Assembly (NCBI RefSeq): GCF_053078305.1
Contig: NZ_CP166879.1
Reading direction: 5' to 3' (one strand)
Length of the DNA: 64,000 nt
Position numbers: made by a program. Of this stretch, positions 8,601-14,600 are shown piece by piece; position 1 is the stretch's first letter, and every line of letters starts with the position of its first letter.

Positions 8601-11600
8601 GCCTGTCAGCGCCAGCGAGGATCTCGGTGCAGGTACGCATGTTGAAGTCATTGCGATAGAAGGGATAACGCTGATCATCCGTGCGGTCATCGCCTGATGC
8701 GACGCTGACGCGTCTTATCATGACTACAAAATATGCCCGAATCGTAGGCCAGATAAGGCGCTTGCGCCGCATCCGGCAGTCGTGCACCGAAGCCTGATGC
8801 GGCGCGGGCGCGTCATATCACGCCAAAACCGTAGGCCGCCTCCGCCATGTTAAATGTTAACTGGCATTGGCAATTTACTCTTCCCGGCCTTTACTCATAC
8901 TTTTTTGGTCTTCATCCGGATAGTGTTTTTTTAGATATTCCAGGACGTTTTTATTGACCTTGTGTTGCGTATACACCCACCCTTTCCAGTAATCAGGCTG
9001 GTCCAGGTAAACTTCTGGCGGAATGGTGAAATCAGAAAGCGTTAACCATTCGGCTAACAGATCGGGGTTTCGTTTCTGGATCAACTGCAACAGCATAATC
9101 AGCGACATGGCAGAGGCAGGAGCCGTACTATCGCCGCTTAAATACTTCCATACTGTCGACCGGTTCGAACGAAAAAGGATCGGTAGCAATGCCCGGTCCA
9201 GATTCATTTCATTAAAAATCTTCTCAAATTCATTCATTTAAATTTTCCTGCCTGGCGTAAACCTCTTAAAAATTGAGATTTATCAAAGAAACGCATTTTA
9301 GCACACATCAGGAACCGCTTCACGTTTAGTCCAGAAACAGAATTTATTTCGCTTATCAAAACAAGTCTTTACTCTTTTTTACATTGAAAGAGCACGAAAT
9401 GATTTCCTTTTTTATTTATAAAAGAAACAATTTTTGTTTCTTATTGGTGGTGTTTACGCTTACATCAAACAAAAATGCGCTTTACATCACACAAATGGCG
9501 GCGTAGATTTCGATCAAATTGCAACGCAGATTAATTCTTATAACAACGTTTTATGTTGCTTATAGAAACAAATATGTGACTTACTTTGGACGAGAAAAAA
9601 TACATGAATACTGTAAAGTTGTCTTTACTGGCTGTCGTTGTTGCTACCGCAGTAAGTCCATCTGCGTTTGCGGGTGATACTGTTGAGGCGGCAGCGACAG
9701 AATTAGCGGCAATCCAGCCAGGAATGTCGCAAGTGGAAATTGATCAGAAAATTGGTCGATTTTTAGAAAGGACAGGAAATAGCGCAGCCGCACAAAATTA
9801 TCTGATTGCGCATGATTACCAGACAACGACGCCTCAGGAAAATACAACTGCTTCTCCCGTACAGCCCGCCAGTACGCTGAACCCGATAACCAATCAAGCG
9901 CAGACCGTCCGCGACAACGGGCAGGACACCGCCATTCAGGACGCGCAACATGCCGCCAACTGGGCGTCGCAAAAAGCTGATGATGCGCACCATGCCATTA
10001 TGGTGGCGCAGACGGATATTGATGCCAATAAAGCCGCCATCACCGACACCCGCAATGATGTCTCCGCAGTGCAGTCAGACGTCACCAACATAAAAGCCGA
10101 TGTCGCACATGCTCAGTCAACGGCTGACCATGCCAACGCTAACGCCAACACCGCTCTGATGAACGGCGTCAAACTTTCCGGTGCTGTGACAGAAAACAAA
10201 AACAATATCGAACAGAACCGCAGCGATATTGCTGACCAGCAGAAACGGCTGGCATCAAACGAGCACAAACAGACCGTCCGCGACAACGAGCAGGACACCG
10301 CCATTCAGGACGCACAACATGCCGCCAACTGGGCTTCACTGAAAGCTGATGACGCGCAGCACGCCATCACGGTGGCGCAGACGGATATTGATGCCAATAA
10401 AGCCGCCATCGCCGACACCCGTAATGATGTCTCCGCAGTGCAGTCAGACGTCACCAACATAAAAGCCGATGTCACACATGCCCAGTCAACGGCTGACCAT
10501 GCTAACGCTAACGCCAACACCGCTCTGATTAACGGCGTCAAACTTTCCGGTGCTGTGACAGAAAACAAAAATAATATCGAACAGAACCGCAGCGATATTG
10601 CTGACCAACAGCAACAACTCGACGAAACCCGGAAAACCGTTGCCGCCACCGGGGATGTGCAGACTGCCGCCCGATATCAGAGCATGATTGACGCCAGACA
10701 GACAGCCGCTGCCAATGCGCAACAGGAACAAGCGGACACCCAGCAGCAACAAATGGACGATCAGCAGAAACAAATCGACGCGACGCAAAAAACGGTTTCC
10801 GCACTTGGCGATGCCCAGACCAACGCACATTATCAAGAGATGGTTAACGCCGGACTGAGAGCACAAAATGATGCGAATGCGCGTACTGCAGCAGAACAAA
10901 AACAAAAAATAGATACTCTGGCGACTAACCAGGCAACGCAACAGCATATCGATAGTGTGCAGTACGGGGAACAAATTCAGCGTCTGGCGCAAGACTCAAC
11001 GCAAACGCATGAACAAATTGACAGCCTGACACAAGACGTAACCCAAACGCATCAGCAGTTAAGCAACACGCAAAAACGAGTAGCGGATAATAGCCAACAG
11101 ATTACTACGCTCAATAACCATTTCAGTTCGCTGAAAAACGAAGTTGAGGATAATCGTAAAGAAGCCAATGCGGGAACTGCATCTGCCATCGCTATCGCCT
11201 CACAACCACAGGTTAAAACCGGTGACGTGATGATGGTGTCAGCGGGAGCGGGAACCTTCAACGGTGAATCTGCGGTGTCTGTAGGAACATCTTTTAATGC
11301 CGGAACGCATACCGTGATTAAAGCCGGTGTCTCTGCGGATACACAATCTGATTTCGGCGCGGGTGTCGGCGTGGGATATTCGTTCTAATATTTCAATCCT
11401 CAATATAAATAAGAGCAAGGAAGCTTGCCGGTTTTCACCTCTTCATTAATTTGTACATTATTTAAGGTTAACAATGATGAATAGCTCCATTAAATCGTTT
11501 TCCCTGCTGGCGGTTATATTACTGGCTGGCTGTAGCTCACCCGCTTCCCGCATCGCAGATTGCCAGGCGCAGGGCGTCAGCCATGACACCTGTTATCTCG

Positions 11601-14600
11601 CAGAACAGCAGCGCCAGACGGCTATTTTAAGTGCTTCCGAAGCGCAGGCATTTAAAAATGCAGAAGCCGCACAACACGCCCAGGCGGCAAAGAAAGCCAT
11701 TTATAAAGGATTTGGCATGACCTTTAGAATGAGCAGTAAAAACTTTGCTTATCTCAATGATTCATTATGTGCAATTGATGAAGACAATAAAGATGCCACT
11801 GTTTATCAGTCAGGTCTGTATAACGTCATTGTTTATCATCACACAGGAAAAGTCGCCTTAATGAAAGAAGGCCAGTTCGTGGGTTATTTAAAATGAAGGA
11901 GCAAAGGAAAATACCCCTGACGCATATTATGATTATCGGTGCGTTTATTTTTGCCTTCTTGCAAGTAGTATTATTAGCCTCCCTGGTTCACGCTGTGAAT
12001 GTTAACAACGAAATCCAGGAAGGCTTATTTCAGTCGGGGCGCATTATGGTAGAAAGTTTGCAGCATATTCTTTCGGTGCAAACGGGGATTAACTGATTTT
12101 CACCCCGCCCGATGATGACAGCAGCCGGAGAGATTTTCGATAATCGGGCAGTCGGCGCTGTCATCACCGGGGCAGGCATTCGCCAGCGCCAGTAGCTGGT
12201 TGCGCATGGATTGCAGTTCTTCGATATGCCGTTCGATCTCCGCCACCTTCTCCAGCGTACGACGTTTGACGTCGGCACTGTGACGCTGCGGGTCGTTAAA
12301 CAGATTCACCAGCTCGCCGCTCTCTTCCAGGTTAAAGCCCACCTGGCGCGCCTGGCGCAGTAAGGTCAATTCATTGAGATGCTGCTGCGTGTAGGTTCGA
12401 TAACCATTTTCGCTGCGCATCGGCGGCGTCACCAGCCCCTTCTCTTCATAGAAGCGAATGGCTTTGCTGGTCAGGCCGGTAATTTTTGCTACATCGCTAA
12501 TGTTCATCGTTCGCGCAACGCCTCCTGTGCTTTGTTAAAGGGTTTCAACAGATAATCCAGCACGCTTTTTTTGCCGGTGCGGATATCGACCGTCGCCACC
12601 ATACCGGGGAATATCGGAAACTGCTGTTTGCTTTTGTTTTCCAGATGGTTGCTGAAAGTGCGAATGTACACCCGATAGTAATAAACATCGCGCCGCACTT
12701 CATCCTGCACGGTGTCTGGTGATATCACCGCTACTTCTCCCGGCAGACCGCCGTAGATGGAGTAATCGTAGGCAGTTATTTTCACCAGCGATTTTTGCCC
12801 CGGATGGATAAACGCCACATCGCGCGGGGAGATTTTTGCCTCAATCAGCAGTTGCTCATCCAGCGGCACGATGGTCATCAGTTTACCACCGGGGGCGATG
12901 ACGCCGCCAACCGTGGTGACGTCAATATCCTGAACAATGCCACGAACTGGCGCAGTAAAGTTGAGCCTGGTGAGGGAGTCTTCACGCCCACGGATCACCG
13001 AACGCTGGGTTTCCACTTCCGCATTGGCTTTCGCTAACTCTTCCCGCGCCTGAACGTAGTATTGCGTGCGCACGTCGCTGAGTTTGTTTTCCAGTTCATT
13101 GGCCTGGCGTTGCAGGCGCAGCACTTCGACGCTGCTCGCCGCCCCCTGTTTCACCAGCGGCTGGGTCATCGCCAGTTCACGGTTGACCAGGCTAATCCCC
13201 TGCGTCAGCCCGGTGGTGGCTTTGTTCAACCCGTCGCGGCGAGTGTTGTACAACGCCGTTTCCGACTCGATAAGTTCGGGGAATTTATTCAGTTCGTCAG
13301 GGAAGACCAACGGTTTATTGCTCACTTCCGCCCGCAGCCGCGCCGAGGTTGCCAGCGCAGCGTACAGCCGCGACATCGCTTCCTGGACGTCGGATTCCGT
13401 TTTAGTGCGGTTAAGCTGCGCCAGCGGCTGGCCCTGTTCGACAATATCGCCAACTTTCACGTTCAGATGATACAGAATTCCGCCTTCCAGCGACTGCACC
13501 ACCTGTTCGCGCCCGGAAGGTTCTACCGTGCCGCTGCCGGTGGTGACTTCATCAAGCTGGAAGTACCACGCCCAGCCGAGAAAACAGAGCAGCATCACAG
13601 CGGTAACGCGTACCGCCAGCGCCGAACGCGGCAAGCGGGGTTCAGTCAGGCCACGGTTGTATTGCAGTTGTCCGTTCATGCAGCAGACCCCTTATTCTTC
13701 TCCTGCAACACCACCCGTCGCGCCGTGGGTTCGCTCTGTTCACGCAAAATGGCCTCTTTCGCGCCATCCATCACAATCCGCCCCTGATCCATCACGATTA
13801 TCCTGTCCACCAGCTGCAGCATCGCCGTGCGGTGAGTGGCGATGACCAGCGTGCGATGTCCAATCCACTGTTTCAGATGTTCGATTAAATGCGCTTCTGC
13901 CATTTCGTCCAGCGAGGCGCTGGGTTCGTCGAGCAGCACGATATTGGGTTGAGAGATGAGTAGCCGCGCCAGCAACAGCGTTTGTCGCTGACCGCCAGAG
14001 AGGCCAAATCCTCCTTCCTGAATCATGTAGTTGAGACCGTTTTTCTGCTTCTGCACAAAGGGCAGCGCCCCGCTGAGGGTTAACGCGCGTTCGATATCTT
14101 CATCGCTGGCCTCCGGCATCCCCATGGTGAGGTTTTCCCGCAGCGAACCAAAGAACAGTCGCCCGGTCTGGCTGAGTAGCCCCATGTCTCGCCGCAGATC
14201 TGCCGGATCAAGCTGCCCGATACTGATGTTATCCAGCAACACCTGCCCCTGCTGGGCGATACGCATTCCAGCGAGCATTTGCAGTAGCGTCGATTTACCC
14301 GCGCCGTTGCGCCCGAGAATGGCGATTTTCTCACCAGCCTGAATGTTGAGTTTGCCAATCGCTACATCGGCAATCTTCTCTTCTTCGTCGTAATAAAACA
14401 CCGCGTTGCTGAACTGATAATTACCGTGCAGCACCGCTTTATGCACCAGTTTGCCGTGTTCCGGCTGATCCACCGGGCGCTTCATCAGTTCATCCAGGCC
14501 GTTACGCGCCACCTTTGCCTGCTGCCAGCGCGAGAGCACGCCGGATATCTGCGACAGCGGCGCGATGGTGCGCGAAGCCAGGATCGTCGTCCCGACCAGC

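Follow-up and report, generated by a model that had tools for sequence, protein, structure and literature searches.

A lipoprotein gene found behind headless trimeric autotransporters in O-island 29 of Escherichia coli and in other Enterobacterales: a possible outer-membrane-side accessory

Does the lipoprotein gene that follows a trimeric autotransporter (TAA) gene in the chromosome of Escherichia coli encode a dedicated helper of the autotransporter? The window, i.e., the whole stretch of DNA that was analysed (64,000 nucleotides of contig NZ_CP166879.1, RefSeq assembly GCF_053078305.1), is a piece of E. coli chromosome with the order cnoX-fetBA-qmcA-ybbJ, a genomic island, cueR and, further on, the genes of a type I secretion system and of a giant adhesin. 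In the island, a TAA gene is followed by the genes of a lipoprotein and of a 67-aa membrane protein, together covering positions 11474-12096 (Table 1), and the original prediction was that the two products could be a helper pair analogous to the sadA-sadB arrangement. Both open reading frames (ORFs) lie exactly where they had been called, with the lipobox LLAGC in the first one and an ATGA overlap between them, and the upstream gene, described as TAA-like, encodes a signal peptide and a YadA anchor (PF03895, YadA_anchor, E = 1.3e-11, 44.8 bits against a cutoff of 22.7). Our favoured reading, a tentative one to which we give a probability of about 0.45, is that the lipoprotein would be a dedicated accessory, on the outer-membrane side, of a family of headless TAAs. 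It draws on synteny, on co-conservation with the anchor of the TAA and not with its passenger, on co-expression and on selection, synteny being the sole positive evidence from which a functional link with the TAA is inferred.

The lipoprotein and the 67-aa ORFs are genuine genes and not chance ORFs. Comparisons within Escherichia give the lipoprotein a ratio of nonsynonymous to synonymous substitution rates (dN/dS) of 0.03-0.06, a mark of strong purifying selection, and many Enterobacterales encode full-length homologues of it, some with as little as about 37% identity. The 67-aa ORF has a dN/dS of about 0.3, with few substitutions, and the RefSeq annotation (Prokaryotic Genome Annotation Pipeline, PGAP) contains both genes in the E. 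coli records inspected. The identity of the locus was established by a literature search with the locus tags of strain EDL933 and by mapping published deletion and cloning primers (PMC5826968) onto an O157:H7 record as well as the window. Yang et al. (2018) (PMC5826968) described O-island 29 (OI-29) of EDL933, an enterohaemorrhagic E. coli (EHEC) O157:H7, with the genes z0638, z0639 (named "gmrA") and z0640, and the primer mapping identifies z0638 as the lipoprotein gene, z0640 as a divergent 120-aa gene and "gmrA" as the TAA gene. The lipoprotein gene of the window shares 98% DNA identity with its orthologue z0638. In that work, z0638 and z0640 were hypothetical proteins of unknown function, the gene list of the island comprised three genes, the 67-aa ORF not among them, and neither the lipobox of z0638 nor the TAA nature of its neighbour was mentioned. 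Transcription of z0638 was shown there by RNA-seq and quantitative reverse-transcription PCR: in Dulbecco's modified Eagle's medium (DMEM) the expression reached 20 reads per kilobase per million (RPKM) for z0638, 96 for the TAA gene (z0639) and 44 for z0640, and all of them were silenced upon HeLa contact, z0638 and the TAA gene to 0 (PMC5826968, Table S3). The lipoprotein and the 67-aa gene are on record only as hypothetical ORFs, and no description of the lipoprotein family, of its two-module architecture or of its link to headless TAAs was found in the databases and literature searched.

The expected co-occurrence with the TAA was confirmed for the lipoprotein, both within E. coli and outside Escherichia, where most loci lie directly behind a YadA-anchor TAA. 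Of 5426 complete E. coli genomes, 1416 carry the lipoprotein and the small gene and 1414 the TAA C-terminus, in every case on the chromosome. The TAA differs in length between lineages (338 aa in O157:H7 versus 594 in the window), its passenger being replaced or expanded, and it is conserved between lineages only in the N-terminal 60 aa and the C-terminal 255 aa, the latter being 76% identical to the 338-aa O157 protein. The lipoprotein and the small gene keep 96-98% DNA identity across E. coli lineages. Since the passenger varies while the C-terminal 255 aa and the lipoprotein/small gene stay constant, the conserved partner of the lipoprotein would be the anchor end of the TAA.

One genome per species was scanned, which gave 49 loci; of the loci available, the window and some further ones included, 30 carry a homologue with both domains. 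A YadA-anchor gene confirmed by hidden Markov model (HMM) is located upstream and on the same strand in 17 of these 30 loci, directly adjacent in 15 cases (gaps of -38 to 327 nt, also given as 47-330 nt) and within 2.3 kb in the other 2. The upstream proteins of two further loci (L010 and L012) end in TAA-like beta strands (...GFSGDF) and fail Pfam YadA_anchor; they were counted as possible TAAs only, yielding 17-19 of 30. The TAA, where present among the 30 loci, is always upstream of the lipoprotein. TAA-linked members are found in every major branch of the lipoprotein tree, and the TAA-linked loci are spread over at least 10 unrelated chromosomal neighbourhoods in several genera and three families of Enterobacterales, suggesting that the pair relocates as a unit. 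In the reciprocal direction, a search with the TAA anchor yielded close E. coli fragments and nothing else.

The TAA of the window (594-600 aa) consists of a signal peptide (MNTVKLSLLAVVVATAVSPSAFA, followed by GD), a coiled-coil stalk with two 123-aa repeats (a tandem repeat with a period of 369 nt and 1.9 copies) and the YadA anchor, and Pfam detects no YadA head or stalk domain in it. The same holds for the partner TAAs tested: the anchor is their only domain, accompanied in some by collagen-like repeats, and a YadA head or stalk is absent from all of them. A recent survey, for which a YadA head domain was a requirement, reported SadB and TpgA and no other helper (2026 preprint, 10.64898/2026.01.22.700529); further helpers would be missing from it because of this requirement, as the partner TAAs described here are headless.

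The N-terminus of the lipoprotein (MMNSSIKSFSLLAVILLAG, followed by CSS) has a positively charged n-region, a hydrophobic core and a lipobox ending at Cys20. It agrees with the generic lipoprotein pattern [LVI][ASTVI][GAS]C, in the form LLAG-C, and Cys20 is invariant across the family; lipidation at this residue is predicted. The family alignment also shows Y41, Y111 and Y121 as invariant residues and C30 and C40 as near-invariant ones, the two cysteines presumably forming a disulfide made by DsbA. According to the +2 sorting rule, lipoproteins without Asp at +2 undergo Lol-dependent targeting to the outer membrane. Position +2 is Ser in the window and S, T, Q or V, never D, in the family, and therefore the protein is predicted to be a periplasm-facing lipoprotein of the outer membrane.

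The alignment and an AlphaFold model divide the mature protein into two modules. The N-terminal one is modelled with helices at residues 23-32 and 37-69 at a predicted local distance difference test (pLDDT) of 45-71, and the C-terminal one, which follows a conserved QHAQAAKK motif, at a pLDDT of 80-89. These modules are separable: the N-module alone makes up lipoproteins of 63-69 aa in Aeromonas, Pseudomonas, Buttiauxella and Atlantibacter, and also in alphaproteobacteria, and in Symbiopectobacterium the N- and C-modules are adjacent separate genes. The C-module profile retrieved only 97 clusters among 1.84 billion representative proteins.

Searches of Pfam, NCBIfam and PHROGs with the lipoprotein, the 67-aa protein, single N-modules and C-domains gave zero matches above cutoff, and all the weak family matches of the lipoprotein and the small protein correspond to signal peptide plus lipobox or to coiled-coil noise. 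The PDB sequence search with the lipoprotein gave no match at E<=10, the N-module has no PDB relative, and Foldseek against the PDB gave no match at E<=0.001. Homology to an unrelated known family, which would have spoken against a helper, was thus not found in Pfam, NCBIfam, PHROGs or the PDB. A recurrent weak match was TraV, a lipoprotein of F-type type IV secretion (TIGR02747), over the signal peptide and a Cys-x(7-9)-Cys-x3-EQ motif (E 2e-4 to 2e-2). Membership in this family is not supported, six members of the lipoprotein family scoring 16-22 bits against a cutoff of 44.75, with no TraV chain in the PDB profile search and no conjugation genes nearby, and TraV is kept as a lead only.

Two helpers of TAAs serve for comparison. 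SadB of Salmonella (STM3690), with its paralogue YajI, is the one lipoprotein for which assistance to a TAA has been demonstrated (Grin et al., 2014, PMC3953254). It is an inner-membrane lipoprotein of about 213 residues with Asp at +2, encoded 44 bp upstream of sadA, and it combines an N-terminal trimeric coiled coil with a MATH-like C-domain, forming a trimer in the crystal and trimerising weakly in solution (PMC3953254). SadB and the lipoprotein of the window are both small lipoproteins adjoining a TAA gene in Enterobacteriaceae, 44-85 nt apart with no strong terminator-like structure. In both, the N-terminal part is helical and the C-terminal domain a beta one, and either could plausibly take part in TAA biogenesis. 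In the window the spacer between the TAA stop and the lipoprotein start is 85 nt, and a hairpin seen by eye in it is no significant structure (z 0.05).

This layout, with a long helix before the beta domain, and sub-threshold matches to alanine-zipper lipoproteins (E 0.08-0.12) would fit a trimeric periplasmic chaperone of the SadB type with the 67-aa protein as its partner. However, hhalign of a 24-sequence profile of the lipoprotein family with E. coli YajI gave a probability of 0.5%, aligning the lipobox alone, and neither SadB nor YajI appeared among the matches of either structure search. The C-domain of the lipoprotein has 65 residues in a protein of 140, whereas the MATH-like domain of SadB has about 120 (YajI structure 2JWY), the residue at +2 is Ser instead of Asp, the gene lies downstream of the TAA gene instead of upstream, and its partners are headless TAAs whereas that of SadB is a long TAA with a head domain. 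No sign of the trimeric coiled coil that the analogy would predict was seen in a low-confidence AlphaFold fusion of three copies (paired 16-sequence alignment), with a predicted template modelling score (pTM) of 0.28, a helix pLDDT of 35-47 and no gain over the monomer. Membership in the SadB family is largely refuted, and we consider a SadB-type chaperone with the 67-aa protein as its partner extremely improbable; of the sadA-sadB analogy, what survives is at most one of role and not of kind.

TpgA of Acinetobacter, a periplasmic partner of AtaA with BamE-like and OmpA-like parts, is likewise encoded next to its TAA and would likewise act on the anchor at the periplasmic side of the outer membrane, but it is not homologous to our lipoprotein, and peptidoglycan binding and complex formation have been shown for TpgA only. 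BamE and OmpA_C gave no match to the lipoprotein in Pfam/NCBIfam at E<=1, nor to the C-domain at E<=10. Since the testable features of SadB are not found and the BamE/OmpA domains of TpgA are absent, the lipoprotein belongs to neither of the known helper families, although it could still work like one of them.

In the mechanism that we favour, the cassette is a small mobile unit composed of a divergent helix-turn-helix (HTH)-like gene, a headless YadA-anchor TAA and the lipoprotein, with the 67-aa inner-membrane protein added in Escherichia and Pseudocitrobacter only. The lipoprotein would pass through Sec and receive its lipid at Cys20, and Ser at +2 would direct it through the Lol system into the outer membrane, on the inner leaflet. 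Three parts would then face the periplasm: the helical hairpin stapled by its cysteines, an Ala/Gln-rich linker of a flexible kind and the small eight-strand beta domain. From the periplasmic face of the outer membrane it may act on the conserved anchor and on the membrane-proximal stalk, possibly favouring the assembly, stabilisation or retention of the 12-strand barrel; such contact with the TAA, and any effect on its display, is what we infer from the gene arrangement. Its function would resemble that of SadB or TpgA without relation to either, and the 67-aa protein would be a lineage-specific add-on tying the lipoprotein, or an intermediate of the TAA, to the inner membrane.

Several observations weigh against a dedicated accessory, and some of them point to the main rival explanation, in which the lipoprotein works autonomously in the envelope and has no more than the island in common with the TAA. 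It might then be a small binding or inhibitor domain that a lipid anchor holds in the periplasm, like MliC/PliC or stress lipoproteins, and the adjacency would reflect the common descent of the cassette. Eleven of the 30 lipoprotein loci are orphans without any TAA, and orphans are stably maintained in Klebsiella and Raoultella, those of Klebsiella grimontii and Raoultella terrigena sharing one conserved neighbourhood; the matches of the lipoprotein on plasmids are also orphans, on megaplasmids. Standalone N-modules are widespread without TAAs, for instance in Aeromonas and Pseudomonas, and the C-module also occurs behind the ordinary signal peptides of non-lipoprotein secreted proteins, in one case on a contig that resembles a Rep3 plasmid or a phage. 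Pfam/NCBIfam detected in the lipoprotein neither a peptidoglycan-binding nor a BamE-like or chaperone-like domain, and the fusion model mentioned above gave no trimer signal. No phenotype ties z0638 to the TAA: its deletion had no motility phenotype, and deletion of the whole island left adherence to HeLa and Caco-2 cells unchanged, in experiments in which TAA display was not assayed (PMC5826968).

Against an autonomous role, the adjacency has been kept in the different neighbourhoods of three families despite the divergence of the TAA passengers beyond recognition. Moreover, the orphan of Enterobacter soli shares the neighbourhood of its TAA-linked relatives, which argues for a secondary loss of the TAA and not for an independent origin. 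Concerning a lysozyme inhibitor, MliC/PliC and other small eight-strand beta domains (FAIM-CTD, NHBA-C, ACP) share only 9-12% identity with the C-domain, the Foldseek matches are not significant, Pfam MliC did not match any of 22 C-domains even at E=10, and none of the MliC sequence motifs was seen on reading the lipoprotein alignment. Altogether, we regard an autonomous lipoprotein as a possible, if somewhat doubtful, explanation.

Two other explanations involve the small protein. The overlapping genes of a lipoprotein and a single-pass inner-membrane protein recall Rz/Rz1, and in a horizontally acquired island they might serve a mobile element, in a spanin-like or entry-exclusion-like function unrelated to the TAA; there are indeed weak matches to an Rz-like spanin (E 0.033), to O_Spanin_T7 (0.097), and to Cor, TrbK and TraV. 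These matches, however, are far under the cutoffs and essentially cover signal peptide and lipobox, the Rz-like PHROG spanning 17 residues of the signal peptide, and tblastn found no match in 50,697 phage records. There is no holin, endolysin or conjugation gene nearby, the periplasmic tail of 35 aa is too short for an i-spanin, and the small protein is missing from most lipoprotein loci, all of which makes this function very improbable. An envelope signalling system, in which the lipoprotein and the small protein would sense the state of the TAA and relay it to transcription, would explain why deletion of the TAA gene ("gmrA") lowers fliA and fliC expression and motility (PMC5826968), and an HTH-like gene is part of the cassette, while Yersiniaceae TAAs of the same family have a conserved HTH-like extension before the signal peptide. 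Nevertheless, neither the z0638 deletion, which according to the primer mapping also takes out the ATG of the 67-aa ORF, nor the z0640 deletion affected motility (PMC5826968), and there is no known mechanism and no sensor domain; we hold signalling to be improbable.

The second half of the proposed helper pair is poorly supported. The 67-aa protein has a K/R-rich N-terminus, a single hydrophobic span at about residues 10-33 and a C-terminal tail predicted to be periplasmic, and no family match in Pfam, NCBIfam or PHROGs; its ATG (11893-11895) overlaps the TGA of the lipoprotein gene (11894-11896). The frame, the transmembrane segment, a motif HA[VI]xxNxEaxxxxxQS and the 4-nt overlap are all kept in E. 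coli, E. marmotae, E. whittamii and two species of Pseudocitrobacter, and beyond Escherichia/Shigella and Pseudocitrobacter no homologue was found. With this narrow distribution, and with the orphan lipoprotein loci, the idea of a pair is weak. Other genera have different genes behind the lipoprotein. Pantoea has a 69-aa C-terminally anchored protein with a 4-nt overlap (locus L023, 3069-3278), Enterobacteriaceae RIT691 a 211-aa Gly/His-rich secreted protein, also with a 4-nt overlap (L028, 7402-8037), and Phytobacter a 91-aa N-terminally anchored protein that starts 59 nt downstream without overlap (L012, 7461-7736). This diversity suggests a slot for a variable coupled partner.

Table 1. Features of the island and of the lipoprotein (positions in the window)
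Feature	Position	Strand	Basis
Genomic island, O-island 29 (OI-29) of EHEC O157:H7	8698..12099		between ybbJ stop (8697) and cueR stop (12100)
Divergent 120-aa gene, z0640 orthologue, HTH-like motif	8875..9237	-	z0640 primers flank gene
Headless TAA, orthologue of z0639 ("gmrA")	9604..11388 (ORF 9586-11388, probable ATG 9604)	+	Pfam YadA_anchor
Lipoprotein gene, z0638 orthologue, 140 aa	11474..11896	+	ORF call; z0638 primers flank gene
Lipoprotein signal peptide and predicted lipobox LLAG-C (residues 16-20)	11474..11533	+	Cys20, then Ser-Ser
N-terminal module, helix-turn-helix hairpin with Cys30 and Cys40, then Ala/Gln-rich helix	11531..11680	+	alignment, AlphaFold
C-terminal module, 65-residue eight-strand beta domain after QHAQAAKK motif	11696..11893	+	alignment, AlphaFold
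67-aa bitopic membrane protein, N-terminus predicted inside	11893..12096	+	ORF call; ATGA overlap with lipoprotein gene, translationally coupled

The boundaries of the island are sharp. A sequence comparison shows that the stop codons of ybbJ and cueR abut in K-12, and therefore the four genes are a 3.4-kb insertion; the published OI-29 deletion primers (PMC5826968) map to 8650-8688 and 12100-12137 of the window, and the four genes are annotated likewise in E. coli records. At the left edge, after ybbJ, the Rfam scan detected a REP/BIME-type element (naRNA4, 60.4 bits against a gathering score of 59.5; 8747-8824), with a weaker naRNA4-type copy at 8658-8724, and no other RNA family match. At the right edge, the 67-aa ORF and the convergent cueR end 3 nt apart (12096-12100), leaving no space for a terminator, and their transcripts must therefore run antisense into each other; a weak terminator-like site lies on the minus strand within the 67-aa ORF (11918-11897). 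An extra 407-aa hypothetical gene separates the 67-aa ORF from cueR in some E. coli, e.g., EC974 (L002, 6456-7679).

The divergent gene of the island, z0640, encodes what is likely the DNA-binding protein of the cassette. Its homologues lie upstream of the TAA-lipoprotein cassette in Pseudocitrobacter, Rahnella, Ewingella, Yersinia, Serratia and Symbiopectobacterium, with a common motif LLGVxRSTLxKWxNG, and its family matches are weak (MqsA, E 0.08; HigA-2, E 0.33). Past cueR there is a second island on the minus strand (12504-36619), with an HlyD-family adaptor (12504-13679), an ABC permease/ATPase (13676-15838) and an intact repetitive adhesin of 6925 aa (15842-36619) named BapA-related adhesin SiiEA in RefSeq. 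The SiiEA-type adhesin is frameshifted in O157:H7 and in the enteroaggregative E. coli (EAEC) 042 (E. coli records; PMC2808357).

The primer mapping also bears on the published nature of "GmrA". The gmrA deletion, pET28a cloning and FLAG primers of PMC5826968 map exactly to the TAA ORF (in the window and at 4587-5603 of L057), the expression primers spanning it from MKTVNVAL, in the signal peptide, to GVGYSF, which is the final strand of the YadA anchor. Pfam finds in the O157 GmrA only YadA_anchor (45 bits) and coiled-coil noise, and the HTH-like motif of OI-29 belongs to the z0640 gene. Judged by these sequence features, the "transcriptional activator GmrA" (PMC5826968) is an autotransporter with a signal peptide and a YadA anchor.

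The HTH-like extension mentioned above is present in TAAs of Rahnella, Ewingella and Yersinia aleksiciae as a conserved stretch of about 38 aa (…NK.ELARYFGVSASTIRRVL) directly before the signal-peptide core and its AxA site (L013, 5734-5850; L016, 5204-5320; L017, 4750-4866; L027, 5136-5252; L018, 5989-6110). It gives matches to HTH_28, CENP-B_N and HTH_38, all sub-threshold, and is under selection, with a ratio of nonsynonymous to synonymous polymorphism (pN/pS) of 0.15-0.39 among four Rahnella and Ewingella sequences. Three long TAA forms in the protein collection or RefSeq have the same start (Rahnella L013 and L016, Yersinia L018), the Ewingella form not being on record. The extension is not an extended signal peptide region (ESPR).

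The analysis gives an identity to two of the "unknown" genes of O-island 29, and with GmrA being an autotransporter, the published mechanism of a transcriptional activator needs re-examination. If the lipoprotein were autonomous, the outcome would be an ordinary one, i.e., one more uncharacterised envelope lipoprotein. If, on the other hand, it is an accessory of the TAA, it would add to SadB and TpgA, the only TAA helpers known so far (10.64898/2026.01.22.700529), a third and unrelated helper family of the outer-membrane type, devoted to headless TAAs, which would mean that dedicated helpers arose repeatedly. E. coli would then also provide a simple system to study the periplasmic needs of the TAA anchor, in a cassette present in O157:H7 and in neonatal meningitis (NMEC), uropathogenic (UPEC), avian pathogenic (APEC) and EAEC lineages.

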